This document shows positions 10,917-61,088 of a DNA stretch of 64,000 nucleotides, in pieces (within the stretch, counting starts at the first letter, position 1; every line of letters starts with the position of its first letter). Origin of the DNA: Bdellovibrionales bacterium (GTDB taxonomy: Bacteria; Bdellovibrionota; Bdellovibrionia; Bdellovibrionales; UBA1609). A model generated the notes under the pieces. It was given only the letters and a program-made list of their open reading frames with translations. It was not told where the DNA came from and did not search any database. The stretch covers positions 834,144-898,143 of the forward strand of contig OZ241967.1 in assembly GCA_965204055.1 (NCBI GenBank). Reading direction: 5' to 3'. The position numbers were made by a program, and so were the translations under genes.

Positions 10917-11013
10917 GACAGTCAAAGAAAAGCTGTTAAGAATGGTAGAAGCTTTTAAGATAGCCAAAGTAGTATAGGAATAATTTGTTTTTCGTATCCT
11001 TTACAGGTTTTTA

Positions 11014-11040
11014 CCCCTCGCTTAAAAGGCGAGGGGTTTT
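11014..11040 (+). terminator. intrinsic terminator hairpin
   Basis: CCCCTCGC-TTAAAAG-GCGAGGGG followed by TTTT. Sits between convergent genes 10602-10916 (+) and ahcY (-). Confidence 0.55.
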
Positions 11041-11058
11041 ATTTGGTGCAAAAAAATT

Positions 11059-23134: not shown

Positions 23135-24976
23135 ATGTGTGGTATTATGGGGTATATGGGTTTTCGTGATTCAAAAGAGGTTTTGCTGAACGGGCTGGAA
23201 AAAATTCAGTATCGCGGTTACGACAGCATGGGGTTAGTGGTGGCCACAAAAAACGGATTTAAAAGAATTCGATCTGTGGGTGATATTAAACAACTTAGAA
23301 AAAAAGTAGTTAGTACAGGTGATATTTCCCATTCCTCTTACGGGCTGGCTCACAGTCGATGGGCCACGCATGGCGCGCCTTCTGAAGCCAATGCGCACCC
23401 TCATAAGGCAGAACATATTTATATTGTTCATAACGGGATTATCGAAAATGCCCAAGAATTAAAAAAAACTCTTCCTTATTTTTTTTCCTCTGAAACGGAT
23501 TCGGAGGTAATAGCTTATAGTTTGTTGGATCTTTATAAAAAAACAGGTTCTCTAAAAGAGGCTTTGTTTGATACCTTCTCCAAGATAAAAGGTGAGTATG
23601 CTTGCGCAGTTATGTCTGAAAAACATCCTAAAGAATTTTTTGCTTTTAAAAAAGGACCTTCTTTGTTGATAGGGGTAGGGGAAAGGGAAATATTTTTATG
23701 TAGTGATGCTCAAGGAATCCTGCCTTATACGAATAAAATATTTTTTTTAAAAGACGGAGAAGTAGCACACATTAAAGATGGAAAAGAGCTTTCTTTTTAC
23801 TCTTCTGAAAACTCTGAAAAAAAAATTAAAAAAAATATCACAACATTAAAATCTCAGGAGGATCGGACAGATAAGCAAGGCCACCCTCATTATATGCTGA
23901 AAGAAATTTATGAGCAACCAGGTTGCGTTTCTCGACTAATTCAGCAGAATATTAACAATAAAAATCACTTGGTAAAGATAAACGAAGGTGGAAAATATAA
24001 CCTTTTAGATCAAATTGTTCAAGAGGGAAGGCTTAGCATTGTGGCCTGTGGTAGTAGCTATTACTCAGCTCTTTATGGAAAATACACCATCGAACAACTT
24101 AGTCGTATTGCAGTGGAAGTGGATATGGCCAGTGAGTTTCGTTATCGAGCCCCTGTGTTACCGGATCGTACTCCCATTATGTTGATTTCTCAAAGTGGAG
24201 AGACCGCAGACACCCTGGCTGTTTTGAAAATGGCAAAGGAGCTAAACTGGCCTGTTTTAAGCTTGTGCAATGTGGAGCACTCTTCTTTAGATAGAGGTTC
24301 TACTACCCAACTTTATATGTGTTCAGGGGTGGAAAAAGGAGTAGCCAGTACTAAGGCTTTTGTGTCAACTTTAACAATGTTGTTTTTGTTGGCCCTGTTT
24401 TTAGGGAGACAAAACAAATATATTAATTCCTCTACAGAAAAAAAATATATTCAATCTTTACTCACTCTTCCCTCTCTTATGGAGGAGGTTTTATCTTGTG
24501 AGCGGGAATACACAGCTTTAGCTCATTTGGCAAAGCCACTTAAAAGTTTTATTTACTTAGGTAGAAATATCTATTACCCCCTGGCTTTAGAGGGGGCTTT
24601 AAAAATGAAAGAGTTAACTTACAAGCACGGGTCGGCTTATCCGGCGGGGGAAATGAAACATGGGCCCTTAGCTTTAGTGGATAAGGATATGTTAGTGGTA
24701 GGAATTGCACCTAAGTCTTCTGTTCGTCAAAAAACGCTGACCAACTTAGAGGAGGTGCGCTCGCGAGGGGGGAAGTTGATTGTGCTTGGGACTCAAGGGG
24801 ATAAGGAGGTAAAAGGGCTTGCCAAACATTTTTTATCTGTTCCTGCTTGCAATGAATATCTATCCGCCATTTTATGCGCTTTACCTCTTCAGTTAATGGC
24901 TTATCGGACGGCTTGTACTCTTGGGCACAATGTGGATCAGCCCAGAAATTTGGCCAAATCTGTTACTGTGGAATAA
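23135..24976 (+). CDS. glmS: glutamine--fructose-6-phosphate aminotransferase
   Basis: The start was chosen at MCGIMGY, because the Ntn amidotransferase needs Cys2; an SD AGAGGGGA lies upstream. Two SIS domains (SQSGETADT). C-terminal KSVTVE. The ORF is open from 23090. Confidence 0.95.
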   Translation: MCGIMGYMGFRDSKEVLLNGLEKIQYRGYDSMGLVVATKNGFKRIRSVGDIKQLRKKVVSTGDISHSSYGLAHSRWATHGAPSEANAHPHKAEHIYIVHNGIIENAQELKKTLPYFFSSETDSEVIAYSLLDLYKKTGSLKEALFDTFSKIKGEYACAVMSEKHPKEFFAFKKGPSLLIGVGEREIFLCSDAQGILPYTNKIFFLKDGEVAHIKDGKELSFYSSENSEKKIKKNITTLKSQEDRTDKQGHPHYMLKEIYEQPGCVSRLIQQNINNKNHLVKINEGGKYNLLDQIVQEGRLSIVACGSSYYSALYGKYTIEQLSRIAVEVDMASEFRYRAPVLPDRTPIMLISQSGETADTLAVLKMAKELNWPVLSLCNVEHSSLDRGSTTQLYMCSGVEKGVASTKAFVSTLTMLFLLALFLGRQNKYINSSTEKKYIQSLLTLPSLMEEVLSCEREYTALAHLAKPLKSFIYLGRNIYYPLALEGALKMKELTYKHGSAYPAGEMKHGPLALVDKDMLVVGIAPKSSVRQKTLTNLEEVRSRGGKLIVLGTQGDKEVKGLAKHFLSVPACNEYLSAILCALPLQLMAYRTACTLGHNVDQPRNLAKSVTVE

Positions 24977-25037
24977 CCTTGTTACTGTGGAATAACCTTG
25001 TTACTGTGGAATAACCTTGTTACTGTGGAATAACCTT
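24962..25037 (+). repeat. 19-bp exact tandem repeat x4 containing the glmS stop codon
   Basis: GTTACTGTGGAATAACCTT occurs at 24962, 24981, 25000 and 25019. Copy 1 encodes the last glmS codons (VTVE) plus the TAA stop. Confidence 0.95.
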
Positions 25038-25040
25038 GGT

Positions 25041-26021
25041 ATGAAAAAAATAGATTTTTTATTAATTATTGGAATTTTGATCTTGTGTTTCGGATATTAT
25101 TTGTGGCAGGAGCAAAGTCATCCAGATCAGCAAAAACAACAAGGGCAAAAAATGTTCCGAAGACACCAGAAAGACATAAAACCTTGGAAAAAAAATGTGC
25201 CAGTTCGTTCTGAACGCCTTGAACAAGAAATAACAGATCCTTATGAAAAGGCCCTTCAAATTTATTTATCAATAAATGAGGGGATAAAAATATCTGCTAA
25301 CCAATATGAAATGAAACAGCGCAAATATTCAGAAGACTTAACACAGGCAAAAGAATCTCTTGCACAATACCTGGAGGTCACTAAAAAGAGTTCTGTAGAA
25401 GGAGAGGTTGTTAAGGAAATGGTGCGAAAAAATTATGAAGTGGCTTTTAAGGAACTTTATATCATAGTTCAAAGTTCTGCAATGGGTATGCAGTCTATTA
25501 GTGGAGTGGGTGAAAAACTTAAAAAATCTGTTGAGTTTTATAAAAAGTCAGGTCGTCCCTGGAGAAAAGGTTCAGAGGTTTTTTTTATTAAATCTGTAAG
25601 CGATCATTTATACCATAGAGAAAAAATGAAAGAAATTTTTCAGAATATGGAAAACTCATTGAATGAATATGGTGAATCTATACAGAAACTAATTTCACTT
25701 TCTTCTTCCTCAGTAGATTTGTCTAAAGAGCTTAAAGGGTATTACAGATTAAAAGAAACAGACCCTGATAAAGCTAAAAAACTTTTTAAAGAAAATAAGG
25801 GTAAACTGGTTATAAAACAAAAAGATATTAAAGAGTCGATGACTGCTCTGGAAAAAACAGTGGAGCTTAAAATAGATGAATTTACAAAAATGGTTCCTGA
25901 TTTTATTTATCATATGGAATTGTCTTTAAGGGCACTTGAAAAAGTAAGTAAATATTCCCCAATACAGAGAGGGCTTTCTAATTCCATAAAACATCTTTCT
26001 ACTGCAATATTAAAACAGTAG
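25041..26021 (+). CDS. hypothetical membrane-anchored coiled-coil protein
   Basis: ATG at 25041 gives MKKIDFLLIIGILILCFGYYLW (N-terminal TM helix), followed by a K/E-rich helical region. The track ORF start at 25017 lies inside the 19-bp repeat. Confidence 0.55.
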   Translation: MKKIDFLLIIGILILCFGYYLWQEQSHPDQQKQQGQKMFRRHQKDIKPWKKNVPVRSERLEQEITDPYEKALQIYLSINEGIKISANQYEMKQRKYSEDLTQAKESLAQYLEVTKKSSVEGEVVKEMVRKNYEVAFKELYIIVQSSAMGMQSISGVGEKLKKSVEFYKKSGRPWRKGSEVFFIKSVSDHLYHREKMKEIFQNMENSLNEYGESIQKLISLSSSSVDLSKELKGYYRLKETDPDKAKKLFKENKGKLVIKQKDIKESMTALEKTVELKIDEFTKMVPDFIYHMELSLRALEKVSKYSPIQRGLSNSIKHLSTAILKQ

Positions 26022-39705: not shown

Positions 39706-40419
39706 ATGCAAAGGCAAGGGATAATAAGCAGAAACATAGGTTTTGTGGTGGTTTTGTTTTGCCTGGGGACAACATTTGCATACGCTCATAAGGGGGGCAA
39801 AAAAGGTTCGAAATGTCCATCGGCCAATTTGTCTGAGGAGCAAAAAGCTAGTAAGCAGGCAATGTGGCAAGCGTTTAGATCTGAAGCTGAGGGTATGAGT
39901 AAAGCCGAGAGGCGCGAAGCCAGGGCAGAGTTAAGGCAAAGGATTTTAGACATAATCCCTGAGACGGAGGAACAAAGGAACGCGCTTGAAAAATGTATGA
40001 ATCGGCACCGCAGAGATTGGTGTTCATCGATAAATTTATCTGAGGCGCAGAAAGCTCGTAAGCGGGCGATGATACAAGCATATAGAGCTGAAGTTAGGGA
40101 TATGAGTAATAAAAACGATAGGCGCAAGGCCAGGACAGAATTAGATCAAAGGATTTTAGACACAATTCCTGAGACAGAAGAACAAAGGAGAGCAATTGAA
40201 GAATGTATAAATCGTAGTCGAAGCTGGTGTCCACCGGCAAATTTATCTGAGGAGCAGAAAGCTCGTGAGCAGGCAATGATACAAGCACATGAAGCTGAAA
40301 TTAAGGGTATGACTAAAGCTGAGAGGCATAAAGCTGGTAAAAGATTAATGCAAAGGATTTTAGACACAATCCCTGAGACAGAGGAACAAAGGAGCGTGCT
40401 TGAAGGATGTATACTTTGA
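39706..40419 (+). CDS. secreted triple-repeat protein, Spy/CpxP-like (LTxxQ-type) motif
   Basis: SD AAGGAGG and a signal peptide. Three 69-aa repeats, each C-x3-NLSE(E/A)QKA...ER..A...L.QRILD.IPETEEQR...E.C. Confidence 0.6.
   Translation: MQRQGIISRNIGFVVVLFCLGTTFAYAHKGGKKGSKCPSANLSEEQKASKQAMWQAFRSEAEGMSKAERREARAELRQRILDIIPETEEQRNALEKCMNRHRRDWCSSINLSEAQKARKRAMIQAYRAEVRDMSNKNDRRKARTELDQRILDTIPETEEQRRAIEECINRSRSWCPPANLSEEQKAREQAMIQAHEAEIKGMTKAERHKAGKRLMQRILDTIPETEEQRSVLEGCIL
39814..40419 (+). repeat. 207-bp in-frame tandem repeat, ~2.9 copies
   Basis: Repeat units start at the TGT codons at 39814, 40021 and 40228. Confidence 0.9.
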
Positions 40420-40632: not shown

Positions 40633-43600
40633 ATGAGCACTGTCCTAACCCTTAAAAAAGAAGAAAAGGCTTTATCGCCACAGGTGCTAAAAAACGCCCC
40701 CACTATGGCTACTAAAGCAGAAAAAGAAGAAAATTTATCGGCAAAGACGATAAAAGACGCATCTGCTACTGCAACTAAAGATTCCTCAACCCATAACGCA
40801 AAAACACAAAGCAAGAATCAGGAGAATGTCGCCGAATCTACTATTCATAACCCTATTCATAATACCAGCCACAGCACAAAATCGCCACACAGTAAGAGTC
40901 AGGAGAGTAGCCTGAACCCAAATAAACCAGCCTCGTTTGTGCATCTTCATGTGCACACCCATTACTCCCTTTTAAAGTCTTCTTGCACAGTTTCAGGTGT
41001 GGTAAATAAATGTGTAGAATACTCCCAACCCGCTGTGGCCATTACGGACTATGGCAATATGTTTGGTGTATTAGATCTGTATTTTAAAGCTAAGGAAAAA
41101 GGTATTAAACCTATTTTAGGGTTGGAAATTTATCTCACTCCAGGCCATCGCTCAGAGAAAAAAAGTTATTCTTTATCTGGCCCCACTCCCTCTGTTTCTT
41201 CTGTTTCTTCTGCCTTTCAAGTTAGAAACCCCTCTTTAATTTTGTTGGCACAAAATGTGGAAGGTTATAGAAACCTTTGCCGTATTAGCACCATTGCTTA
41301 TCAAGAAGGCTTTTATTATGTCCCCAGAGTGGATTATGAAACTTTAAAAAAATATAATAATGCAATTATTGCACTATCCGGGGGGTTTAATGGGGAGATT
41401 CCTCAAATTTTCTTAAAAAAAGGACCTGATAGAGCTTTGGAAACTATTAAAAAACTAAAAAATATTTATCACGATCGCTTTTATCTTCAGCTTAACCGCA
41501 CAGGGCTTTTAGAGTGGGATAAGGTAAATAATTTTTTGCAATCGGCGGGAAAAATAACCCAAACAACCCTCACGGCTGGCAATGATGTGCATTACCTTGA
41601 TAAGAAAGATCATCTGGCACAAGATGTGTTATTTTGCATTGGATCTAATAGAACTTTAAGGGATCAAGAGCGATTTAAGTTAAAATCAGATCAATTTTAT
41701 TTTAGAGATTCTAATGAGATGAGAGAATTATTTAAAGATATTCCTGAAGTATGTGACAGCACTTTAGAAATCAGCTCTCGTTGTCAGGTTCAGTTTCAAC
41801 TAAAAAGAGATGGCCGGCCTATTTATCATCTTCCCAAATTAAACCGCACTGGATTTGAAGATGAATCTTTGAAACAACTAAAGATGGAGAAAGCAGAAGA
41901 AGAAGGCCCACAAAGAGATCAGGAGAAAAGTCCATCAACGAAAGTCCAAACATTAAGTTCACAAAACCAAAAAGTTACAGCCAAAGGTCCACAACAAATA
42001 GATCAGGAGAAATCAGTTTCAGAGGACTTATCAGCAGAAACTCAAACATTAAATTCGCAAAACAGGAAAGTTGAAGAAAAACAGGAAAAAGAGTCAACAA
42101 AAACATTAAGAGATTTAAGTTTTTCAGGATTGGAAAAAAGATGTAGGGAATTTAAGAAAAGTTTAACAGAAGAAGAAAAACAAAAATATAAAAAGAGGTT
42201 GGAAGAAGAATTAAGAATTATTATAGATATGGGTTTTGCGGATTATTTCTTAATTGTTTATGATTTTGTTCATTGGGCAAAAAAAGAAGACATTCCCGTA
42301 GGGCCTGGGCGAGGTTCAGGGGCCAGCTCCTTGGCGGCTTATTGTTTAGAAATCACAGACTTAGATCCTATGCCTTATAATCTTTTGTTTGAAAGATTTT
42401 TAAACCCGGAAAGGATTTCTCTTCCTGATTTTGATATTGATTTTTGTCAAGAAAACAGGAACCGTGTTATTGAATATGTAAGTAAAAAATATGGCAAAGA
42501 TTATGTAGCTCAAGTGATGACTTACGGAAGGTTACAGGCGCGTGCGGCTATTCGGGATGTAGGGCGTGTGTTGGGAATGAGCTATGCAGAAGTGGATCAG
42601 ATTGCCAAGCTGATACCAGAGAAATTAGGCATCACCTTAGAGTCAGCTATAAAAGACAATCAAAGACTTAATGAGCTAATAGAGGCTGATCCTCAAATTG
42701 AAACTCTGATCAGCCTGGCTCGTCAGATTGAAGGTCTTATCCGCCATGTCAGCATTCATGCGGCAGGGGTGATTATTGCAGATCATCCTATTATTAACTA
42801 TGCTCCTCTTTATAGAGGGACAGAGGGAGAAAATATTATTCAATGTGACTTAAATCTTTCTAAAAAAATAGGTTTAGTTAAATTTGATTTCTTGGGATTA
42901 AAAACTCTAACTCAGGTGCGTTCTGCTTTTCAGATGATTACTCAAAATAAAAACAAACTACTTTCTGTTAAAGATATTTCTTTAGAAGATAAGGGTATTT
43001 ATGAAATTATGCGAGAAGGTGATACTAAAGGTGTGTTTCAGTTTGAGGGAGAGGGAATCACAGATCTAATCATTAAAGCAGAGCCTTCTTGTTTCGAAGA
43101 TATTGTGGCTATTAACGCGCTTTTTCGTCCGGGCCCTATGGATATGATTCCCTCTTATTTGAACAGAAAAAAAGGGAAAGTAAAAGTAGATTATTTATTT
43201 CCTGAGTTAGAACCTATATTAAAGGAAACTTATGGAATTATCGTGTATCAAGAGCAAGTCCAGCTTATTGCCGCAAAAATTGCAGGCTATAGCTATGGGG
43301 AGGCTGATGTTTTACGAAGAGCAATGGGAGAGAAAAAGCCCGCTGTGATGAAAAAACAAAAGAGCCGTTTCCTGAAGGGAGCAAGAGAAAATGGATATGA
43401 CAAAAAAAAATCAGAAAGGCTTTTTGATCTGGTGGAGGAGTTTGCTAAGTACGGGTTTAACAAATCTCATGCCGCGGCTTATTGTGTGTTGGCGGCTCAA
43501 ACTGCCTGGCTTAAAAAATATTATCCTGTGGAGTTTTTTGCCTCTCTTCTTTATATGGAAATCAACAACACGGATAAAATAGTTCGTTATGTTCAAGATG

Positions 43601-44661
43601 CAAAAAAACATAATATAAAATTGTTGCCACCTCATATTAATCATTCTAAGTATTTTTTTACTCCTGTTAAAAATAAAATTTATTTTTCTCTGGGAGCAAT
43701 AAAAGGGGTGGGACATTCTGCTGTAAACCATATTATTCAGGTTAGGGAACAGTTAAAAGAGGGTGGTTTTGTATCTGTTCAGCAGTTTTTTGAAAAAGTA
43801 GATATAAAAAAAGTAATAAATAAAAAATGTATAGAATCTCTTGTAAAAGCAGGAGCTTTTGATGGCATGGAGTTAAACAGAAATGAAATACTTTCTAACT
43901 ATGAAAGTTTTATAGAACAAGTGGAGAAGAAAAAAGAAGAAGAGGAATCTGGGCAAATAAATTTATTTTCTACTCAAGCAAAGTCTCAAAATTTTGTATA
44001 TAAACGGCAACCAGAGTGGAGTTTTTCAGTTCGATTGGATAATGAAAAATCTGTAATTGGATTTTATTTAAGTGGTCATCCGATGGACTATTTAAAGCCT
44101 TTTAGAAAGATCTGTGGTTGTGGGCCTATTTCGTCTCTTGATGAGAAAGAGCATAAAACGGAAGTTTGTGTTTGGGGCCTATTAAATGGGTTTCGAGAAG
44201 TCACCACCAGAAAAGGAACGCGGATGGCTTTTGGTAGATTGGAAGATGGCACAGGGGTTTTGGAAGTTGTGTTTTTCTCGGATGTGTATTTAAAGTTTGA
44301 AACACAGATCCGCCGGACAGAAGAACCTTTAGTAATTAAAGGGAGTCTTGTAAAAGACAAAGATAAGTATACAAGATTATTTGTTCAAGAAGTGTTATCA
44401 ATAAGGGCACAGATGAGTAACCACGCGCGCGGAATGATTTTGCTGTTAGGGGAGCATGAAAAACAGAAACTCCCAGTGTTAAAAAAACTATTAGAGCAAT
44501 ATACCGGTCCAGTGCCTGTGTATTTTAATGTTCAGCTGGAAGCCCCCCCCAGAACAGTATGTTTAAAGCCCAGTTCTCTTTTAGGTGTAACTCTTAGCCC
44601 GCACTTTTTAGAGCAAATACAGAAAACAATGGGTGGGAAAAATAAAGTACAAATTTATTGA
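40633..44661 (+). CDS. dnaE: DNA polymerase III alpha subunit
   Basis: PHP motif FVHLHVHTHYSLL, PDFDIDF catalytic aspartates, and finger/OB-fold regions. Has a ~100-aa low-complexity N-terminal extension and a ~75-aa Q/K/E/S-rich insertion (about 41880-42110). Confidence 0.95.
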   Translation: MSTVLTLKKEEKALSPQVLKNAPTMATKAEKEENLSAKTIKDASATATKDSSTHNAKTQSKNQENVAESTIHNPIHNTSHSTKSPHSKSQESSLNPNKPASFVHLHVHTHYSLLKSSCTVSGVVNKCVEYSQPAVAITDYGNMFGVLDLYFKAKEKGIKPILGLEIYLTPGHRSEKKSYSLSGPTPSVSSVSSAFQVRNPSLILLAQNVEGYRNLCRISTIAYQEGFYYVPRVDYETLKKYNNAIIALSGGFNGEIPQIFLKKGPDRALETIKKLKNIYHDRFYLQLNRTGLLEWDKVNNFLQSAGKITQTTLTAGNDVHYLDKKDHLAQDVLFCIGSNRTLRDQERFKLKSDQFYFRDSNEMRELFKDIPEVCDSTLEISSRCQVQFQLKRDGRPIYHLPKLNRTGFEDESLKQLKMEKAEEEGPQRDQEKSPSTKVQTLSSQNQKVTAKGPQQIDQEKSVSEDLSAETQTLNSQNRKVEEKQEKESTKTLRDLSFSGLEKRCREFKKSLTEEEKQKYKKRLEEELRIIIDMGFADYFLIVYDFVHWAKKEDIPVGPGRGSGASSLAAYCLEITDLDPMPYNLLFERFLNPERISLPDFDIDFCQENRNRVIEYVSKKYGKDYVAQVMTYGRLQARAAIRDVGRVLGMSYAEVDQIAKLIPEKLGITLESAIKDNQRLNELIEADPQIETLISLARQIEGLIRHVSIHAAGVIIADHPIINYAPLYRGTEGENIIQCDLNLSKKIGLVKFDFLGLKTLTQVRSAFQMITQNKNKLLSVKDISLEDKGIYEIMREGDTKGVFQFEGEGITDLIIKAEPSCFEDIVAINALFRPGPMDMIPSYLNRKKGKVKVDYLFPELEPILKETYGIIVYQEQVQLIAAKIAGYSYGEADVLRRAMGEKKPAVMKKQKSRFLKGARENGYDKKKSERLFDLVEEFAKYGFNKSHAAAYCVLAAQTAWLKKYYPVEFFASLLYMEINNTDKIVRYVQDAKKHNIKLLPPHINHSKYFFTPVKNKIYFSLGAIKGVGHSAVNHIIQVREQLKEGGFVSVQQFFEKVDIKKVINKKCIESLVKAGAFDGMELNRNEILSNYESFIEQVEKKKEEEESGQINLFSTQAKSQNFVYKRQPEWSFSVRLDNEKSVIGFYLSGHPMDYLKPFRKICGCGPISSLDEKEHKTEVCVWGLLNGFREVTTRKGTRMAFGRLEDGTGVLEVVFFSDVYLKFETQIRRTEEPLVIKGSLVKDKDKYTRLFVQEVLSIRAQMSNHARGMILLLGEHEKQKLPVLKKLLEQYTGPVPVYFNVQLEAPPRTVCLKPSSLLGVTLSPHFLEQIQKTMGGKNKVQIY

Positions 44662-48970: not shown

Positions 48971-49115
48971 TTATCACGGGTGACTAATTAGTTGCCCGTG
49001 ATAAAATATGTTTTCTTAAGAAAAAAACTTGCTTTGCTTCAAAACAAGCGTGGATTCCCGCTTACGCGGGAATGACAGCGAGGACGAACAAGCTTTTTCA
49101 CGGGCGATTAATTAG
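48971..49115. mobile_element. MITE (129 bp) with an abutting solo TIR
   Basis: The full element at 48987-49115 has TIRs AATTAGTTGCCCGTGATAAAA and CTTTTTCACGGGCGATTAATTAG, with internal palindrome ATTCCCGCTTACGCGGGAAT (49054-49073). An extra inverted TIR, TTATCACGGGTGACTAATT (48971-48989), abuts it. Confidence 0.6.
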
Positions 49116-49362
49116 TTAAAGCGATTTGTAAGACCATAGTCCTATTTATGAAATATAGATCTGTTAAACAGTATTTTTATTTGCTGATTGTGGGCTGTTC
49201 AATAGTCTTATTTATGAAGTGCAGACCTATCAAAAATCTGCATATATGGGACAATTTACAAGACTTTATTAGCGATTCCTGCGTGTTCTAATAGTCAAAC
49301 ATCTGCATATATGGGACAATTTACAAAACAACTTAAAAACTACTTCTATGAGGTCAAAATAA

Positions 49363-49803
49363 ATGAGTGATAATAAAATAGTCAGTTTTATCTGGCAAGT
49401 GGCTGAGCTTTTGCGTGGCCCTTATCGTCCCAATCAATATAAAAAAGTTATACTTCCTCTTATAGTTTTAAGAAGGCTGGATTGTGTATTAGAGCCAACA
49501 AAAGAGAAGGTCTTAACAAAAGAAAAAAGTTTAAAAAAAAGCAAAATGAGAAACATAGAATCTATTTTAAATAGAGTAGCTGGTCAAAAATTTTATAACA
49601 AAAGCCATTTTACTTTTGAAAAGTTGAAAGCTGATCCAGATAACATTTCAGCTAATCTTACAAATTTTATAAAAGGTTTTTCTGAAAGAGCCAGGAAAAT
49701 TATTGAACATTTTAATCTTGAAAAAGAGATTGCGGAAATTGAGGCAGATTTAAAAGAGATTGAGGAAGAGATTACAGAGATATTATTGGAGACAGTGGGA
49801 TGA
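49363..49803 (+). pseudogene. hsdM: type I R-M methyltransferase HsdM, in-frame internal deletion remnant
   Basis: The N-terminal HsdM_N domain is present (IVSFIWQVAELLRGPYRPNQYKKVILPLIVLRRLDCVL). It joins directly to a short coiled C-terminal tail. At 146 aa it lacks any SAM-binding or NPPF/Y catalytic motifs. Confidence 0.75.
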
Positions 49804-50858
49804 GTAAAAAAAGAAGTGTGGGAAGCAGTATGATGGAGTTTCTTATTTTTAAAGAGCCATCCGATGGGCCTCAAATTGAAGTCCGCTATGAAAAGGGCAC
49901 TATATGGCTCACACAAAAGCTTATGGCAGAGTTATTTTCTGTGGAAAGATCAGTTATTACAAAGCATTTGGCCAATATTTTTAGCGAAGGGGAGCTGAAC
50001 AAAAATTCAGTATGTGCAAAATTTGCACATACTGCCCCAGATGAAAAAAGCTATAACACCCTGTTTTATAGCTTGGATGCTATTATTTCTGTAGGTTATC
50101 GAGTTAATTCTCACCGGGCGACCCAATTTCGCCAATGGGCCACCCATATTTTAAGAGAATTTGCCATTAAAGGTTATATTTTAGACAAAAAAAGAATGGA
50201 AAACGGCTATTTTCTGGGAGAGGACTATTTTGAACAGTTACTTTCTGAAATCCGGGAAATCCGTCTGAGTGAAAGGCGTTTTTATCAAAAAATCACTGAT
50301 ATTTACACAACCAGCATAGACTACGATAAGGATGCGCCTACCACCCGTGAATTTTTTGCCAAAGTGCAAAATAAGCTTCATTTTGCTGTTCATGGCAAGA
50401 CTTCTGCGGAGCTTATCAGGCAGAGGGCGGGCAGCAAAAAACAAAATATGGGCCTCACAAATTGGGCTAAAAGTCCTGATGGCAAGATTTTAAAAACGGA
50501 TGTTTCTATCGCCAAGAATTATCTTAATTCAGAAGAATTATCAGCTTTAGGTAGAATTGTAAGTGCTTATCTGGACCTGGCAGAAGAAAGAGCTAAGCGC
50601 AAGATTCCTATGACTATGGAGGATTGGGCTAATAGGTTAGATCGTTTTTTGGAGTTTGACGAAAGAGAAATTTTAAAAGATTCTGGAAAAATCAGCCATG
50701 AGTTGGCAAAAAGCTTTGCAGAAAGTGAGTTTGAAAAATATCGTATCATTCAGGACAAGCTTTTTGAATCTGATTTTGATCAGGAAGTTGGGAAATTGGA
50801 AAAGCAGTTAAGAGAAAAACAGAGCGTTGTTAGTCAAAAAACAGATAGAAAAAAATAA
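49800..50858 (+). CDS. rhuM: RhuM-family protein
   Basis: IEVRYEKGTIWLTQKLMAELF...SVCAKF...DAIISVGYRVNSHRATQFRQWATHILREFAIKGY is characteristic of RhuM. The ATGA at 49800-49803 overlaps the hsdM remnant stop. Confidence 0.85.
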   Translation: MSKKRSVGSSMMEFLIFKEPSDGPQIEVRYEKGTIWLTQKLMAELFSVERSVITKHLANIFSEGELNKNSVCAKFAHTAPDEKSYNTLFYSLDAIISVGYRVNSHRATQFRQWATHILREFAIKGYILDKKRMENGYFLGEDYFEQLLSEIREIRLSERRFYQKITDIYTTSIDYDKDAPTTREFFAKVQNKLHFAVHGKTSAELIRQRAGSKKQNMGLTNWAKSPDGKILKTDVSIAKNYLNSEELSALGRIVSAYLDLAEERAKRKIPMTMEDWANRLDRFLEFDEREILKDSGKISHELAKSFAESEFEKYRIIQDKLFESDFDQEVGKLEKQLREKQSVVSQKTDRKK

Positions 50859-50934: not shown

Positions 50935-52521
50935 ATGAAAAAAATATCTTATACAAAGTATAAAGATTCTGGTATAGAATGGCTTGGGAAAATCCCAGAA
51001 CATTGGAAAATAAAAAGGTTAAAATTTTTATTATCTAAACCATTAAAATATGGTGCAAATGAATCTGCTGAATATGACGAGCCTTCATGGCCAAGATATG
51101 TGAGGATTACTGATATAGATGAAAATGGTATGTTAAAAAAAGAAACTTTTAAATCTATTCCTAAAGAAATAGCATACCAATATTTATTGAAAGATGATGA
51201 CATATTGTTTGCTCGTAGTGGTGCTACTGTTGGAAAAACTTTTCTTTATCAAAAGTGTTATGGGCAAATTGCATTTGCTGGATATCTAATTCGTGCAAGA
51301 TTTGAAATGTCGGATAATATCCCAAAATTTATTTACTATTTTTGTCAGTCGCAAGTTTATTGGAAATGGATTAAAAATAATTCTATACAAGCTACCATTC
51401 AAAATATTAGTGCTGAAAAATATTCTAACTTATATATATCCTTGCCTGATATATATGAACAAAAATCTATTACTATCTTCCTGAATAAAGCAACTTCTTG
51501 GATTGATTCCTTGATAGAAAAAATTAAAAAATCTATCACTCTTTTAAAAGAATACCGCTTGGCTTTAATCACTTCCGCAGTCACTGGACAAATTGATGTT
51601 CGTAAATCCCAAGCACAAGAAATAACAGTTCAAGCCCAAAAGACAGAAAGACAAAAACTTGCCAACTCTTTAAAAGTTCTGGATTTCCGCTTTCGCGAGA
51701 ATAACCGCCATGTCGGCGGTGACAAAGTTGCTCTGGCTCTTGTGTCTGATCATGAATTTGCAACCAAGCTACAAAGAGATTCCCGCTTTCGCGGGAATGA
51801 CCGCCGTGTCGGCGGTGACAAAGTCGCTGTAGCTCTTGTATCTGATCGTGACTCTATGTCTAAGTCACAAAAAGATTCCCGTTTTTGCGGGAATAACAAG
51901 CTTGTTGCTAAAAAAAGATCAAAAAAGTTAGCTTCACCTATATTTAAAAAAGCTGTTTTTGGAGCAGAAATTGTTGCTCAGTTAAAAGATGATCCTCATT
52001 TTGGCAGAACAAAATTTATGAAAACCCTTTATTTGTGTGAAGCTCATTTGCAAATCCCTCTAAAAGGAGAATACAAAAGAGAAGCCGCAGGACCTTTAGA
52101 TAGTTCTATTTATACAATAGAAGGGATTATGAAAAGAAACAAATGGTTTGAGGTTGTTAAAACAGGTTCTATGTTCAAATACAAACCTTTTAAAAACCCT
52201 GATGGACATAAGCAGTATTTTAATAAATACTGGGGAGATTATACAAAGGAATTAAACCGGCTTTTATCTATTATGAAGAATTTTACAACGGAACAATCAG
52301 AAATTGTAGATACCATTTATGCCGTATGGAATGATTTTTTATTGGAAGGGAAAAAACCCTCAGTTAGTGAAATTGTTTATGAAGTAAAAAACAACTGGCA
52401 TAAAAGAAAAAAAAGATTTTCTGATAATCAACTGCAAAAAGCCATTCAGTGGATGAAACAGCAAAATCTTGTTCCTAAAGGTTATGGACCTAAAACTAAA
52501 ACTTTAGAGGAAACAAAATGA
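50935..52521 (+). CDS. hsdS: chimeric ORF: half-size HsdS, a repeat-derived linker, and a Panacea(DUF4065)-like C-terminal module
   Basis: The N-terminus (YKDSGIEWLGKIPEHWKIKRLKFLL, DDILFARSGATVGKTFLY, LLKEYRLALITSAVTGQIDVRK) is one HsdS TRD plus a conserved helix. Then 96-bp GC-rich repeats are translated as DSRFRGNDRRVGGDKVA.ALVSD. Then comes GRTKFMKTLYLCEAH...AAGPLDSSIY. The Panacea assignment is tentative. Confidence 0.65.
   Translation: MKKISYTKYKDSGIEWLGKIPEHWKIKRLKFLLSKPLKYGANESAEYDEPSWPRYVRITDIDENGMLKKETFKSIPKEIAYQYLLKDDDILFARSGATVGKTFLYQKCYGQIAFAGYLIRARFEMSDNIPKFIYYFCQSQVYWKWIKNNSIQATIQNISAEKYSNLYISLPDIYEQKSITIFLNKATSWIDSLIEKIKKSITLLKEYRLALITSAVTGQIDVRKSQAQEITVQAQKTERQKLANSLKVLDFRFRENNRHVGGDKVALALVSDHEFATKLQRDSRFRGNDRRVGGDKVAVALVSDRDSMSKSQKDSRFCGNNKLVAKKRSKKLASPIFKKAVFGAEIVAQLKDDPHFGRTKFMKTLYLCEAHLQIPLKGEYKREAAGPLDSSIYTIEGIMKRNKWFEVVKTGSMFKYKPFKNPDGHKQYFNKYWGDYTKELNRLLSIMKNFTTEQSEIVDTIYAVWNDFLLEGKKPSVSEIVYEVKNNWHKRKKRFSDNQLQKAIQWMKQQNLVPKGYGPKTKTLEETK
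51683..51894. repeat. 96-bp tandem repeat (~2.2 copies) built from GC-rich palindromes
   Basis: ATTTCCGCTTTCGCGAGAAT at 51683, ATTCCCGCTTTCGCGGGAAT at 51779 and ATTCCCGTTTTTGCGGGAAT at 51875. The first two are followed by ACCGCC-N5-GGCGGT. The same ATTCCCGC...GCGGGAATGAC core is present in the MITEs at 49054 and 57095. Confidence 0.9.
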
Positions 52522-53624
52522 AAACAAAGTTTTTACCAAAATTTAAAATTACAAAGTCCCTACTCAACCATTTAATGGAAATTGAGCAGGCCAGAGGTTT
52601 TTTGAAAGCCGCCCATTTATCCCCTCAATGGATCAAAAAAATGAGTCAAAAAAGCTTTTTATTGGAAGCGCACCACACTACCCATATAGAAGGAACACAG
52701 CTTACTTTTGAACAATCAAAAAGAATTTTAGCTGGTAAAAAACTTATATCCGATGCCAATAAAGAGGATATAAAAGAAGTTCAAAACTATAAAGATGCCT
52801 TTAACCTTATATCTTCTCTAAGTAGCAATAAATCAACAAAACTTGGAGAACCACCAATTACAGAAACTCTTATTAAACAGATTCATAAAGAACTGGTTAA
52901 AGGAGTGCGGGGAGGGAGTGCTCAACCCGGAAGATACAGGAGCATACAAAATTATATTGGCAACTCTGTCACCAAAGAGATTATTTACATACCTCCTAAG
53001 CCAAAGGAAGTGCCAGCTCTTATGAAAGATTTTGCGAAATGGATCAATCAAGAATCGGATATTCATCCTGTTTTAAAAAGTGGTATTATTCAATTTCAGT
53101 TTGTGCATATTCATCCCTTTGTGGATGGCAATGGACGCACATCGCGATTGCTTTGCACAGCTTTTCTTTATCAAAAAGACTATGATTTTAAAAAGCTTTT
53201 TTCTATTAGTGAGTATTACGACAAAGACAGACAAAATTTTTACAAGGCCATTCAGTCTGTCAGAAATAATAATATGGATATGACGGGTTGGTTAGAGTAT
53301 TTTGTTAAAGGTTTTTTATTTCAAATGAATTTAGTTATGGATATTGGAAAAAAAGTTATTTTTAAAGATGCTTTAATACAAGACTACAATTTATCTCAAA
53401 GGCAAGGTGTTATTATTGAGCATATTTTAGAGAACGGAAAACTCTTTCCAAAAGATTTTGAAGAATTGAAAAAGGAAATGCAAAAAGTGAGTAAAACAGC
53501 CACCGGTAAAAAAGTAACAATCACTAAAAGAACTCTGCAAAGAGATTTGAAAGATATGGTAGATAAAAAAATTATTAAGGTAGAAGGAAAGACCAATCGA
53601 CAATTTTACCGCCTTTTAAAATAG
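52518..53624 (+). CDS. Fic family protein (Fic_N plus Fic core plus C-terminal wHTH-like region)
   Basis: Fic motif HPFVDGNGRTSR. N-terminal inhibitory-type motif TTHIEG ([ST]xxxE[GN]). The start overlaps the upstream stop (ATGA). Confidence 0.9.
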   Translation: MKTKFLPKFKITKSLLNHLMEIEQARGFLKAAHLSPQWIKKMSQKSFLLEAHHTTHIEGTQLTFEQSKRILAGKKLISDANKEDIKEVQNYKDAFNLISSLSSNKSTKLGEPPITETLIKQIHKELVKGVRGGSAQPGRYRSIQNYIGNSVTKEIIYIPPKPKEVPALMKDFAKWINQESDIHPVLKSGIIQFQFVHIHPFVDGNGRTSRLLCTAFLYQKDYDFKKLFSISEYYDKDRQNFYKAIQSVRNNNMDMTGWLEYFVKGFLFQMNLVMDIGKKVIFKDALIQDYNLSQRQGVIIEHILENGKLFPKDFEELKKEMQKVSKTATGKKVTITKRTLQRDLKDMVDKKIIKVEGKTNRQFYRLLK

Positions 53625-53629
53625 GGTTA

Positions 53630-53707
53630 AACTTGCGACAAACTTGCGACAAGCTTGCGACAAACTTGCGACAAGCTTGCGACAAACTTGCGACAAACTT
53701 TGCGACA
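53630..53707. repeat. 11-bp tandem repeat x7 (A[A/G]CTTGCGACA)
   Basis: Units start at 53630, 53641, 53652, 53663, 53674, 53685 and 53696; the last has one extra T. Lies between the fic stop (53624) and the SD/GTG of the hsdR remnant (53733). Confidence 0.95.
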
Positions 53708-53861: not shown

Positions 53862-54432
53862 TCTTCACGGGTTTAATTCCCCGTGGCTTGCCACGCTCCT
53901 TATAAGGCGTTAGCCTTATTATATGGGGAAGTATATTTATAAAAGTCACAATGTATCGATTTTGCTTTATCATTTAGTATGTCCGATAAAGTATAGAAAG
54001 CTTGTGTTGTCGGATAAAGTTTCGCTGGAATTAAAGTGGATATGTAAAGAGATTAGTCAGCGTTATGAGATGGAGTTTATAGAGATAGGTTTAGATGGGG
54101 ATCATGTTCATTTTTTGATTCAGTCTGTGCCGATGTATAGTCCTACACGGATTTGTCGGATAGTGAAGAGTTTAACGGCTCGTGAGTTATTTAGGCGGTG
54201 TCCTGATGTGAAGAAGTTTTTGTGGGGTGGTGAGTTTTGGACGAAGGGATATTTTATAAGCACGGTGGGTCATCATGGTGATGAGCAGAAGATCAGTGAT
54301 TATGTGAAGAATCAAGGTAATAAGTCAGGTTATAAGAAGATTTACAGTCAGCAACTGCGGTTGTTTTGAGAGCACAGATATTGGCGATAGACAACAGTGA
54401 TACCCCGTGGCTTGCCACGGGGAGGCTTCATT
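53862..54432 (+). mobile_element. IS200/IS605-family element (tnpA only)
   Basis: Subterminal hairpins CCCCGTGGCTTGCCACG (53879-53895) and CCCCGTGGCTTGCCACGGGG (54403-54422) flank a Y1 transposase gene. No terminal inverted repeats, as expected for this family. Boundaries are approximate. Confidence 0.8.
53923..54369 (+). CDS. tnpA: IS200/IS605 family Y1 (HUH) transposase TnpA
   Basis: 148 aa with YHLVCPIKYRK, HUH motif in GDHVHFLIQ, and catalytic Tyr region TKGYFISTVG. Confidence 0.9.
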   Translation: MGKYIYKSHNVSILLYHLVCPIKYRKLVLSDKVSLELKWICKEISQRYEMEFIEIGLDGDHVHFLIQSVPMYSPTRICRIVKSLTARELFRRCPDVKKFLWGGEFWTKGYFISTVGHHGDEQKISDYVKNQGNKSGYKKIYSQQLRLF

Positions 54433-54519
54433 TGATTTTATTAAAGAAACTACCAAGAAGAGACTCAGGTCCTTCTTATTATTTTGATGATGATGTTACT
54501 CTTCAGTATTACCGCCTCC

Positions 54520-54784
54520 AGAGAATAAGCGAAAGTTCTATCTCTCTTGAGAGTGGGATAGAAAGTGAAGTATCTGGGCCTACCTCTGTAGGAACAGGAG
54601 TATCAATAGATGAAACCATTGAACTTTCTCATCTGATAGATATTTTAAATGAGCGGTTTGGAACAAGCTTTACACCGGCAGATCAACTGTTCTTGGATTC
54701 CATTAAGGAAGATGCGGTTGCTGATTCTAATTTAAGAGAGGTAGCAATGGCTAATCCGATGGAAAATTTTGGATATATTTTTTT
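54520..54784. repeat. 265-bp direct repeat, copy 1 (target-site duplication of the IS1634-like element)
   Basis: AGAGAATAAGCGAAAG...GGATATATTTTTTT reads identically to 56736-57000 by eye. It ends exactly at the left IR. Confidence 0.95.
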
Positions 54785-56735
54785 CCTGACTTCAGCACAA
54801 CGCAATGCAATAAATGAGTGATTTCCGATATTTACAAATTTTTGGGGGAACACATTTTTAAGATTTAGTTCAAGAAGTGGAGATAAATTTAGACACTCTT
54901 TTAAGACCTAAGGCCTCGTATATGGATCTTATCTCTTGTGTGCTTTTAGAGGGCATACGATAAAGATTTTTGTTTGCGTCCTCTATAAGGCTATATTGAT
55001 CTCTTTTTAAAATCTCTCTCATCTGCCTTATGCTGAAGTTTAATCCTCTTTGTTCCATCCGATACTTCATAGTATAGGAAAGAGAGTAAGCTAAGAAGCA
55101 TATAGCTATATGGGACTCTATTCTTTTCCTCTTCCAATGGTAAATGGGTCTCATCTTAAGGTTGTGTTTGCACACACGAAAAGCCTCTTCTATCTTCCAA
55201 AGTCTCCTGTATCGGGTCAGTATCTCTTGAGGGGTTTGCTCTGTTCTTATGTTGGTTATTACTCCATGCAGACCATCCCACTGACTATCTTCTTTTATCT
55301 TTTGTTCGTTTAATGTAGCTTTTGTCTTTTGAACTGTGACATACTTTTTTGTTCCATAATTAGAGATAAGGCTTTTTATAGGAATTTGGTTTTTCTTTAC
55401 TTTTTTCATCAGTCTTTCAATGAGTCTTAGTCTATCGGACTTGTTCTTCTTGGCTCTCTTCTTAGAGTAGCTGACAATCAGTCTTCTTTCCTTATGCTCA
55501 AACTCCTTTATCCAATGAAACTCATTGGCCACAACAGCGGGTTTAAAGTCTTGGTTTAATATCTCCTCTTTTTTAGTTTTAGAAAGAGTTTTTAGTTTAC
55601 AGGCCACTACATACTGAATACCCTCTTCTTCCATAAGCTTAAGGTTTTTTTCATTAAACATAGCTCTATCAGCGACTAATACCGCCTTTTTAACAGTGAA
55701 TCTTTGTTTTAGCTTTTTCACTGTGGAGATAAGGGTAGAACCTTCGCTTGTGCTTCCTGGAAAAAGCTCATAGCTTAGAGGGTGGCCTTCTTGGTTGGTG
55801 ATAAGGGCTAAGACGACTTGAGTCTCTTTAAACTTTAAGTCTTTGCTAAAGCCGAACTGTCTTAGGTCATCTTCTTCAAAGCTTTCAAAGTAAAGGGTGG
55901 TGACATCAAAGAAGAGGACATCTACTTCTTGGTTAAAGAGGCTGAGGGTGTTTTTAGCTACTGTGTCTTTTACTTGGTCTATTCGGGGGTGAAGTCTATC
56001 CATCATTCGATACATCTGATCTAAGTGCACCTGTTCGTTAAAGTCTTCTTTTAAAGTCTCTACAGTTTTTCTTTTAGAATCAGGATGAGCTACACGAGAA
56101 AGGACGCAGTATTTTAAAATATCGTTCCACTGCTTATCTTTTTTAGTGTTTTGTATGAGAGTGTGGAAGCCTAACTGTTCATAGACAGCCCCACATACTC
56201 CTTTAATGCCATGATGAACACGTGCTTTTTCGTATGGTTTTTTAAGAGAGAAAAGGGAAGGAGACTTGGACTTTTTCTTTTGGTTCTGGTTCTTAGTTTT
56301 TTTGTTTAAAGGATCTTTGCTGTAGATGATCTCAGCCATACCGGGTAAAGCGGGTTGGCGATCATTGCAGAGCTTTATAATCATTCTTTGTGATATTTTT
56401 TCTAAAGAGGAAATGACTTCTGGTTTTGAAGAAGAGCCCACAAAATGTATTGTTTTATGTTTTGTTTTTAAACCTTCTCGGACAGACTCCACAATCCGAA
56501 AGGATTTAATTTTACGGTCTTTGTTTTTCCCTGAGATTTTTGTAGTAACTTTTACAAACATATTTTTACAGTGCCAGAAGAGATATAGGGTGTAAAGGTC
56601 TGGGAGTGGACTACAAGTGGTGTTTTTAGTATATTTTACCCTTCAAAACTACATGAAAACAGCCTGGCGGTGCATCAAAAACCCTAAAAAACATCAAAAT
56701 ATTTTTTTAACACATAGCGTTGTGCTGAAGTCGGG
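54785..56735 (-). mobile_element. IS1634-like (IS4 superfamily) insertion sequence, 1951 bp
   Basis: Terminal IRs CCTGACTTCAGCACAACGCAATG (54785-54807) and the reverse complement of 56713-56735, CCCGACTTCAGCACAACGCTATG (21/23 match). Single transposase ORF. Flanked by the 265-bp direct repeats. Confidence 0.85.
54870..56561 (-). CDS. IS1634/IS4-family DDE transposase
   Basis: 563 aa. N-terminus MFVKVTTKISGKNKDRKIKSFRIVESVREG resembles the IS1634-type start. DDE regions are VLFFDVTTLYFES, VLVADRAM and LWKIEEAFRVCKH. Confidence 0.85.
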   Translation of the reverse strand: MFVKVTTKISGKNKDRKIKSFRIVESVREGLKTKHKTIHFVGSSSKPEVISSLEKISQRMIIKLCNDRQPALPGMAEIIYSKDPLNKKTKNQNQKKKSKSPSLFSLKKPYEKARVHHGIKGVCGAVYEQLGFHTLIQNTKKDKQWNDILKYCVLSRVAHPDSKRKTVETLKEDFNEQVHLDQMYRMMDRLHPRIDQVKDTVAKNTLSLFNQEVDVLFFDVTTLYFESFEEDDLRQFGFSKDLKFKETQVVLALITNQEGHPLSYELFPGSTSEGSTLISTVKKLKQRFTVKKAVLVADRAMFNEKNLKLMEEEGIQYVVACKLKTLSKTKKEEILNQDFKPAVVANEFHWIKEFEHKERRLIVSYSKKRAKKNKSDRLRLIERLMKKVKKNQIPIKSLISNYGTKKYVTVQKTKATLNEQKIKEDSQWDGLHGVITNIRTEQTPQEILTRYRRLWKIEEAFRVCKHNLKMRPIYHWKRKRIESHIAICFLAYSLSYTMKYRMEQRGLNFSIRQMREILKRDQYSLIEDANKNLYRMPSKSTQEIRSIYEALGLKRVSKFISTS

Positions 56736-57000
56736 AGAGAATAAGCGAAAGTTCTATCTCTCTTGAGAGTGGGATAGAAAGTGAAGTATCTGGGCCTACC
56801 TCTGTAGGAACAGGAGTATCAATAGATGAAACCATTGAACTTTCTCATCTGATAGATATTTTAAATGAGCGGTTTGGAACAAGCTTTACACCGGCAGATC
56901 AACTGTTCTTGGATTCCATTAAGGAAGATGCGGTTGCTGATTCTAATTTAAGAGAGGTAGCAATGGCTAATCCGATGGAAAATTTTGGATATATTTTTTT
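56736..57000. repeat. 265-bp direct repeat, copy 2
   Basis: Starts immediately after the right IR and reads identically to 54520-54784. Confidence 0.95.
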
Positions 57001-57027
57001 TAAAAAGCTTGAAGATTTGTTTATAGA

Positions 57028-57151
57028 TAGTCGGTCGTGAAAAAGTATGTTGCAACAAAGTAAACATGGCTTACTTTGTCCTAAAACAGGCGAGATTCCC
57101 GCTCAAGGCGGGAATGACAGCAGGGGTGACAGGGTTTATCACGGGCCACTA
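57028..57151. mobile_element. MITE (124 bp) inserted in the hsdR 3' region
   Basis: TIRs TAGTCGGTCGTGAAAAAG and TTTATCACGGGCCACTA. Internal ATTCCCGCTCAAGGCGGGAATGACAGC (57095-). Removing exactly 57028-57151 rejoins the hsdR frame as ...LEDLFIENRMEQNEDII. Confidence 0.65.
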
Positions 57152-60466: not shown

Positions 60467-60915
60467 GTGCTAAATGCTCTTTTTGGTCGCATTCATCACA
60501 GGTCGCTTCTTCCCTTCGAATCCTGCATTATTGAATTAATTTATGGGGTGGCAGGATGTCGCCTACTTTGTTCGTTCGCATCCAGCTCACTCACTGCGCA
60601 GGCCCCCCTCAGTCGCTCAAAAAATCGTCAATGATTTTTTGTCCTGTGCTAAATGCTCTTTTTGGTCGCATTCATCACAGGTCGCTTCTTCCCTTCGAAT
60701 CCTGCATTATTGAATTAATTTATGGGGTGGCAGGATGTCGCCTACTTTGTTCGTTCGCATCCAGCTCACTCACTGCGCAGGCCCCCCTCAGTCGCTCAAA
60801 AAATCGTCAATGATTTTTTGTCCTGTGCTAAATGCTCTTTTTGGTCGCATTCATCACAGGTCGCTTCTTCCCTTCGAATCCTGCATTATTGAATTAATTT
60901 ATGGGGTGGCAGGAT
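60467..60915. repeat. 179-bp perfect tandem repeat, 2.5 copies, each carrying the last 15 nt of tRNA-Gln
   Basis: Units start at 60467, 60646 and 60825 and look identical by eye. ATGGGGTGGCAGGAT (complement of the tRNA 3' end) occurs at 60543, 60722 and 60901. Only the last copy continues into the tRNA body. Confidence 0.95.
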
Positions 60916-60972
60916 TCGAACCTGCGAATGACAGAACCAAAATCTGTTGGCTTACCACTTGCCGACACCCCA
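60901..60972 (-). tRNA. tRNA-Gln (anticodon UUG)
   Basis: Reverse complement is TGGGGTG TC GGCAAGTGGTAAGCC A ACAGA TTTTGGT TCTGT CATTC GCAGG TTCGAAT CCTGC CACCCCA T. The cloverleaf folds by hand and closely parallels the E. coli tRNA-Gln layout. CCA is not encoded. Confidence 0.9.
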
Positions 60973-61088
60973 TTAAGGAAAATATCTGTGATTTTAAAGA
61001 AAAAATCAAGCTTTTTTGCTGTTATTGTCTAAAGGGCAAAAAAGGAGGGGATTAAAACCTCGTTTTATTTCAGAACTTCATTTCAAAA

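Follow-up and report, generated by a model that had tools for sequence, protein, structure and literature searches.

The locus described here raises the question of what an additional domain is doing at the end of a restriction enzyme's specificity subunit. It lies in a 64,000-nucleotide stretch of the genome of a Bdellovibrionales bacterium (contig OZ241967.1, positions 834,144 to 898,143; hereafter, the window), in which a 528-residue open reading frame (ORF) joins a half-size type I specificity subunit, HsdS, to a C-terminal module of ~195 residues and overlaps the start of a gene for a Fic protein. The module, which has no Pfam family, is a new, restriction-enzyme-fused branch of what looks like one superfamily with the DarG C-terminal domain and Panacea; the identity and evolutionary history of the gene and its module can be stated with high confidence. 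The explanation that we favour overall, namely an inherited HsdS variant with an accessory module that would restrain the restriction subunit, falls somewhat short of an even chance.

Identity of the C-terminal module

Two ORFs are present on the plus strand, at 50935..52521 (528 residues) and 52518..53624 (368 residues, fic). In the first, residues 55–202 match Pfam Methylase_S (PF01420, 5.7e-11), and residues 8–229 align with the second half of a full-length HsdS model up to the end of that model (PADLOC Specificity_I PDLC03105, positions 222–444 of 448, 3.6e-57); the conserved S-subunit helix, LLKEYRLALITSAVTGQIDVRK, occupies residues 203–224. Given the end of the model and the position of this terminal helix, a normal S subunit would stop at about residue 225–230. 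The HsdS part (residues 1–224; 50935..51606, plus strand) thus has a target-recognition domain and the conserved C-terminal helical region, but a single recognition domain where HsdS has two per polypeptide. Half-size HsdS fused to the module also occurs in related loci L006 and L007, where it adjoins a full hsdM, and the Bdellovibrionales clade mixes these half-size forms with full-size ones (L005, L009); the hsdS of L001, called as two overlapping ORFs (313 and 340 residues), is probably a frameshifted full-size gene. A basic, repeat-expanded interdomain linker follows (residues 225–335; 51607..51939, plus strand), recognized by alignment with relatives and by composition, and then the module itself (residues 336–528; 51940..52521, plus strand). 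A preliminary description of the locus had read the ORF as a chimera whose residues 1 to ~215 form one HsdS recognition domain ending in the S-subunit helix, and the PF01420 and PADLOC alignments agree with it that the protein is made of two real parts; it had placed the beginning of the module at around residue 330, where the present boundary is at about residue 336 (position 51940).

The module has no match at E ≤ 1 in Pfam, PF13274 included, and none in PHROGs; nor was a Pfam family found over it in any of ten proteins of the family tested. It is nevertheless already contained, silently, in PADLOC models of HsdS and HsdM, whose C-terminal extensions it matches in MTase_I PDLC03039 (positions 512–700 of 708, 5e-37), in Specificity_I PDLC03196 (positions 599–784 of 792, 5e-33) and in Specificity_I PDLC03088 (positions 475–638 of 649). 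Beyond restriction enzymes, the module matches the C-terminal half of DarG in the PADLOC model (positions 164–328 of 329, 6e-10) and in the NCBIfam model (positions 175–336 of 338, 1.4e-5), the latter with a score of 24.6 that lies far under the cut-off of 250; apart from this weak DarG match, no NCBIfam model covers the module.

The fold points to the same relative. An AlphaFold2 model built from 52 sequences (predicted local distance difference test (pLDDT) 95.9, predicted template-modelling score (pTM) 0.90) consists of a winged-helix-like half and, after it, a helical bundle, and its sole significant Foldseek match in the PDB is the DarG C-terminal domain of the Mycobacterium tuberculosis DarTG complex (7yk3; E = 9.4e-4, probability 1.0, template-modelling score 0.55–0.60). 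The remaining matches are weak winged helices (MarR, RTP, ArsR and ORC, all at E > 0.3), a search of BFVD gave weak archaeal-virus and winged-helix matches with no Panacea protein among them, and a sequence-profile search of PDB chains with a narrow module alignment gave no meaningful match, so that 7yk3 was reached by the fold search alone. The likeness to DarG therefore comprises the fold, hidden Markov model (HMM) similarity across the whole domain, three shared motifs (a K-L/M-x-Y-F/L helix, a GP turn and a W-N/H-x-x-K-K/R-x-F helix) and the general plan of a protective enzyme with a C-terminal binding domain; in sequence and fold, the module corresponds to the toxin-binding domain of DarG. 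By contrast, HsdS stands where DarG has its N-terminal macrodomain (an ADP-ribosyl glycohydrolase), the gene downstream in the window encodes Fic and not DarT (a DarT gene adjoins 1 of 70 related loci), and the module is basic rather than acidic and has an extra beta-hairpin.

The preliminary description had likened the module to the Panacea/SocA-type antitoxin domain. Panacea domains pair with many toxins, Fic/Doc proteins among them, and the PanA of Burkholderia prophage phi52237, taken here as the reference, has been validated experimentally (PMC8832971); a 2026 study (PMC13621843) has independently reported homology between DUF4065 proteins and the inhibitor domain at the C-terminus of DarG. 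Whereas this PanA matches PF13274 readily (8.4e-18, as a positive control), PF13274 was not listed among the Pfam matches of 52 members of the module family, and Panacea was not found in the module by Pfam, NCBIfam or PHROGs scans. Pairwise BLASTP between module and PanA is not significant (E = 1.9), yet the alignment is co-linear, and profile–profile tests were therefore undertaken. By hhalign, the module aligns with the Panacea profile over 126 columns (P = 1.7e-4, score 33.1, probability 49.5%) and with a DarG-C-terminal-domain profile seeded from the DarG of locus L044 (P = 1.2e-4, score 34.6), and the DarG C-terminal domain aligns with Panacea (P = 1.4e-3); column-shuffled profiles score 13.8 ± 2.6 with a maximum of 22.5, and 0 of 150 shuffles attain the observed 33.1 and 34.6. 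The structural comparison runs in parallel: the PanA model (pLDDT 95.6) has its secondary-structure elements in the same order as the module model, and its best PDB match is likewise 7yk3, albeit weakly (7yk3_B, E = 0.2).

Module, DarG C-terminal domain and Panacea thus look like one superfamily, within which the best-supported relative of the module by HMM and fold is DarG; the module is not a member of PF13274. The earlier assignment accordingly holds as regards kinship with antitoxin domains, and fails as regards membership of PF13274, Panacea being reached only by profile–profile comparison. The checks proposed with it came out in the same divided way: a Pfam scan finds PF01420 (5.7e-11) and Fic (4.7e-23) and no PF13274 (none at E ≤ 1), and a fold search with the predicted structure gives DarG as the significant match, 7yk3 being also the best, though weak, match of the PanA model. 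Besides failing PF13274, the module differs from Panacea/SocA in being ~50 residues longer, in being fused to restriction subunits rather than free-standing, and in having no obligatory adjacent toxin; what it shares with them is the remote similarity over 126 columns, with the motifs in the same register, and the parallel order of structural elements.

Distribution and gene neighbourhood

A word-index homologue search returned only 13 relatives, and an exhaustive profile search was needed to bring out the family, which numbers 1716 cluster representatives at E ≤ 1e-3 and 865 at E ≤ 1e-30. The architecture, which the preliminary description had not recognized as one already described, is not rare, and most carriers are full-length HsdS proteins followed by the module. 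Position and architecture were judged on 159 sequences: the module is C-terminal in every one of them, with a tail of at most 28 residues, and 89 have 300–480 residues ahead of it, the length of a full HsdS. Other carriers are HsdM, Type ISP-like and MmeI-like enzymes, and short stand-alone proteins. In L023 and L026, HsdM, module and HsdS form a single reading frame; in these Acidobacteriota metagenome-assembled genomes (MAGs; L023 3056–6394, L026 2–2368), the module is internal, between the M part and a full HsdS part. The family spans many bacterial phyla, with one match in an archaeal MAG (Candidatus Syntrophoarchaeum, L036), and its cultured carriers include Tannerella forsythia, Methylobacterium bullatum, Dyella kyungheensis and Prosthecochloris vibrioformis; the nearest relatives of the window module are in Bdellovibrionales MAGs (71–82% protein identity in the module). 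A literature search found no description of this restriction-enzyme–module architecture, and a search for DarG together with hsdS returned strain genotypes only.

Stand-alone modules were noted at two loci. The only plasmid match among 72,556 records, in Tunicatimonas pelagia (L086; NZ_CP120684.1, 6100–7546), is a 268-residue protein annotated as 'hypothetical' by the Prokaryotic Genome Annotation Pipeline (PGAP), with a 203-residue hypothetical gene 29 nt ahead of it; the pair adjoins a helicase and DNA-methyltransferase pair and a ThiF/multiubiquitin cluster. In L002 (8001–10909), a 270-residue module protein lies 436 nt upstream of a MutH-like nuclease and an N6_N4 methyltransferase, so that the association of the module reaches type II-like systems.

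The gene that follows in the window, fic, begins within the last codons of the 528-residue gene: the overlap ATGA at 52518–52521, described earlier, is confirmed, and the Shine–Dalgarno sequence GAGGA lies within the 3' end of the upstream gene. Its 368-residue product (52518..53624, plus strand) is a SoFic-type class II Fic protein, with matches to Pfam Fic (4.7e-23) and Fic_N and to the PADLOC SoFic model over its full length (3.2e-65, residues 7–363). Three features of that class are present: the end-to-end model match, the inhibitory motif TTHIEG (residues 54–59, with Glu58; 52677..52694, plus strand), to which the preliminary description had drawn attention as a caveat of its own, and the active-site motif HPFVDGNGRTSR (residues 199–210; 53112..53147, plus strand), of the form HxFxDGNGRxxR. 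What sets it apart from SoFic is its setting, since its gene belongs to a type I restriction operon and has its translation coupled to that of hsdS::module. Directly past the fic stop codon, an 11-bp tandem repeat (AAACTTGCGAC, 7 copies, 92% matches) extends over 53629–53707; this stretch aligns to the interval between fic and hsdR in L005.

How regular this neighbourhood is can be judged from 70 module-bearing loci with a callable downstream gene. HsdR is the commonest product (18 of 70), and Fic follows in 7, namely five Bdellovibrionales loci, L030 and L056, which represent three lineages; Schlafen/AlbA_2 is found in four, AAA_21 in three, and DarT, RES, a ThsB-like TIR, AbiH, GmrSD_N, DUF3990, Ymh and a reverse transcriptase in one each. 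An intact operon of the Fic-containing kind is seen in L001, in the order hsdM (668 residues), hsdS (313 + 340), fic (353) and hsdR (997). The three genes hsdM, hsdS::module and hsdR are all present in 52 loci, of which 22 are compact operons without space for a passenger and 30 have gaps of >300 nt, on either side of hsdS; these counts come from module-bearing loci alone. The module sequence tracks host lineage and not neighbour, since modules that are 70–84% identical adjoin different genes: that of L056, with Fic downstream, is 84% identical to that of L050, and that of L044, with DarT downstream, is 76% identical to that of L077 and 70% identical to that of L060, both of which have hsdR directly downstream. 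The PanA/Fic pairing proposed earlier is not general in this census; there is no conserved two-gene unit of the Panacea kind, with Fic directly downstream in one tenth of the loci and no passenger at all in 22 of the 52. Because of the compact loci, the lineage-tracking modules, the SoFic match and the inhibitory motif of its own, Fic is probably a passenger of the operon, and the module not its dedicated antidote.

The L044 locus, on a Phycisphaerae contig (425–5652), contains hsdS::module, darT (Pfam DarT, 1e-60), a darG complete with macrodomain and C-terminal domain, and hsdR; the operon thus holds two homologous C-terminal domains. Substitution of the module for the DarG C-terminal domain beside this DarT was considered and rejected, a complete DarG following.

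Possible functions of the module

The module is constantly attached to the methylating or DNA-recognizing component of the enzyme, independently of any given neighbouring gene. The compact M–S–R operons (22 of 52), hsdR as the commonest downstream gene and the differing neighbours of modules that are 70–84% identical suggest a partner that is intrinsic to the restriction system. In the explanation that we favour, the gene is an inherited, natural variant of the type I specificity subunit, made up of a recognition domain and helix, a flexible basic linker and an accessory domain. The module would act as the second half of DarG does, with a methyltransferase core carrying a binding domain that curbs a dangerous partner, and this partner would most likely be the restriction subunit or nuclease, held where the coiled coil of HsdS ends. 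In type I enzymes, HsdS and HsdM have their C-termini near one another at this point, which fits the occurrence of the module on either subunit. Fic is then probably a self-inhibited SoFic-type defence gene riding between hsdS and hsdR, as rhuM is upstream, and the window system has since been inactivated, hsdM by a 1.57-kb deletion and hsdR by replacement with an IS200-like element and then an IS4-like insertion.

That the module holds back its own system's restriction subunit or nuclease by binding to it is possible, if on balance doubtful, and several points weigh against it. HsdR is brought in as the partner by analogy with DarG and Panacea. The net charge of the restriction-fused modules is basic (median +5, with 89% of 83 sequences positive), whereas DarG C-terminal domains (median −3, 120 sequences) and PanA proteins (median −2, 45 sequences) are acidic; this leaves room for another mode of binding and makes DNA binding worth considering. 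Passengers are present in 30 of the 52 complete loci, many of them toxin-like (Fic, RES, TIR, AbiH, Schlafen, DarT), and in the window hsdS::module and fic have come through the death of the locus intact, as a toxin–antidote pair would predict.

These last observations lead to a reading in which the module would be an antitoxin that silences the downstream Fic or other embedded effectors, the toxin being parked on the restriction complex and freed upon attack. Both characterized relatives of the module are toxin-binding inhibitors; fic is translationally coupled through ATGA, with its Shine–Dalgarno sequence inside the module gene; the hsdS::module–fic arrangement is kept in six Bdellovibrionales loci and has recurred independently in L030 and L056; RES, TIR, AbiH, Schlafen and AAA_21 effectors take the same place elsewhere; and the pair has stayed intact in the window while hsdM and hsdR were destroyed, with the linker repeat in frame in two genomes. 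However, 22 of 52 complete loci do without a passenger and hsdR follows directly in 18 of 70, passengers are about as frequent upstream of hsdS as downstream, closely similar modules adjoin unrelated genes and Fic-linked modules do not cluster, the DarT of L044 has its own complete DarG, and the window Fic, of the SoFic type and full length, has an inhibitory glutamate of its own. Nor does the ratio of non-synonymous to synonymous substitution rates (dN/dS) relative to L005 give a sign of differential retention: it is 0.11–0.14 for intact genes, 0.18–0.19 for fragments and 0.107 for the module, and with all segments at 0.11–0.19 it is uninformative on selective retention of module and fic after decay. 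Similar ratios across segments imply that decay is recent, so that little can be read into the pair being intact. Taken together, we regard this reading as unlikely.

Alternatively, the module could be a nucleic-acid-binding winged helix that holds or scans DNA or autoregulates the operon, its toxin-binding role having been lost. The model resembles a winged helix in its N-terminal half, although the MarR, RTP, ArsR and ORC matches are all at E > 0.3; the family is net basic where DarG C-terminal domains and PanA are acidic; its invariant residues include several lysines and one arginine; and it always stands beside a DNA-recognition module, be it HsdS, the Type ISP C-terminal domain or the MmeI recognition domain. 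Yet no DNA-binding family gives a significant match by sequence, the one significant match by structure is to an inhibitor domain that binds protein, and the conserved motifs are common to Panacea and DarG and apparently structural, which leaves a DNA-binding role improbable.

A broader proposal would make the module a general docking and neutralizing platform, on which co-encoded effectors (Fic here; RES, TIR, Schlafen and AbiH elsewhere) are held inactive on HsdS. The known precedent is PrrC–EcoprrI, in which the gene for an effector, the anticodon nuclease PrrC, lies within a type I restriction locus and its product is silenced by the enzyme. The likeness is in the effector-like genes between hsdS and hsdR (Fic in the window; RES, TIR, AbiH and Schlafen in other loci); the difference is that the present case is known from genes alone and not from physical silencing, and that many module loci have no embedded gene. 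As a generalized form of this guard, effectors would be released once the complex is put out of action or dislodged by a phage anti-restriction protein, and the survival of hsdS::module and fic in a dead locus would thereby be explained. We give little credence to this proposal as a whole.

Finally, the idea that the long ORF is an accident of decay, in which hsdS ran on into a once separate gene after the intervening stop codon disappeared or the repeat spanned it, can point to a visibly degraded locus and to a GC-rich repeat that is naturally poor in stop codons, but such read-through is ruled out by the comparative data: the same single ORF exists without the repeat in L001, L006–L009 and hundreds of unrelated lineages, the PADLOC HsdS and HsdM models contain the extension, and the dN/dS of the module is 0.107.

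Linker repeat, state of the locus and wider meaning

Within the linker lies a GC-rich double-hairpin repeat, translated in frame (51682..51897, plus strand). Tandem Repeats Finder gives a 96-bp unit in 2.2 copies with 81% matches, in line with the ~2.2 translated copies reported earlier; its G+C content is 49%, against ~30% for the remainder of the ORF, and the copies translate as DFRFRENNRHVGGDK, DSRFRGNDRRVGGDK and DSRFCGNN. The RNA is strongly structured into paired hairpins (fold z = −5.4), and the 24-nt hairpin core occurs four times in the window against an expectation of 0. One of these is a lone intergenic copy upstream of the hsdM remnant (49053..49076, plus strand), found by DNA pattern search. 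On the minus strand, at 51779–51798 and 51875–51894, the first hairpin and a T-rich run score as intrinsic-terminator-like. The element may, judging from its sequence, have started out as a terminator or as a hairpin of the repetitive extragenic palindromic (REP) type. An internal promoter or start in the linker was also considered and rejected: no plus-strand promoter-like site is present in 51600–51950, and site counts are not above those of shuffled sequences.

The preliminary description had the fusion made through these repeats, and had suggested looking in orthologous loci for a stop codon between the HsdS part and the module. In L001 and L006–L009, HsdS helix, a linker of merely ~30 residues (as aligned in L006–L009) and module follow one another in a single ORF throughout, without any repeat; the repeat therefore did not create the fusion. 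It is found at the same place in the linker, in frame, in 1.3 copies in L005 and 2.2 in the window. The hairpin repeat very probably came into the linker later, kept the frame and expanded from ~1.3 to 2.2 copies; it makes the tether longer rather than joining the parts.

The restriction system of the window is dead, in that hsdM and hsdR survive as pieces. In the comparison with L005, at ~80–85% nucleotide identity for the locus, the remaining hsdM encodes 146 residues with the HsdM N-terminal domain only (49363..49803, plus strand; Pfam HsdM_N, 9.9e-27), ~1.57 kb having been deleted (L005 1377–2945 is absent). The genes rhuM, hsdS::module and fic are intact; the first, a passenger of the rhuM family (49800..50858, plus strand; Pfam Virulence_RhuM, 5.1e-108), is orthologous to L005 2946–4069. 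Most of hsdR is replaced by an IS200-like Y1 transposase gene (53923..54369, plus strand; Pfam Y1_Tnp, 1.5e-33), and the body of the gene, ~2.4 kb (L005 8943–11316), has no counterpart in the window. A 3' remnant persists at 54437..54784 (plus strand), which blastn aligns to L005 11316–11663 within hsdR 8821–11814; an IS4-like transposase gene, identified from its ORF and an exact 265-nt flanking direct repeat, is inserted in this remnant (54870..56561, minus strand), beyond which a second copy and continuation of the remnant follows at 56736..57030 (plus strand; L005 11399–11693 by blastn). The exact 265-nt repeat, at 54520–54784 and 56736–57000, duplicates a portion of the 3' remnant of hsdR and far exceeds the usual target-site duplication.

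Just upstream of the start of the hsdM remnant is a 35-nt direct repeat (49230–49264 and 49295–49329, 94% identical, 65 nt apart), which could have served the former operon as an operator or promoter. An extra 456-residue ORF between rhuM and hsdS in L005 (4126–5496) is absent from the window. Elsewhere in the window, tandem arrays are found at 60467–61003 (179 nt × 3, two copies identical), 39811–40418 (~207 nt × 3, upstream of dnaE), 24961–25055 (19 nt × 4) and 18090–18287 (33 nt × 6), and a DnaE-like ORF of 1342 residues (40633–44661) carries long low-complexity insertions rich in Ser, Lys, Gln and Glu near its N-terminus and around residues 430–500.

The window copy is thus a decayed example, with a translated hairpin repeat in its linker, of something much more general. 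Restriction and toxin–antitoxin systems are usually held to be separate classes of defence that merely resemble each other; here, restriction enzymes carry on their protective half, in covalent linkage, a domain of the DarG/Panacea superfamily, in ~1700 sequence clusters and four enzyme architectures. Were restraint of the restriction subunit its role, type I, ISP and IIL enzymes would have a new level of protection from their own activity; were it the parking of embedded effectors, restriction-guarded abortive infection would have a physical basis.

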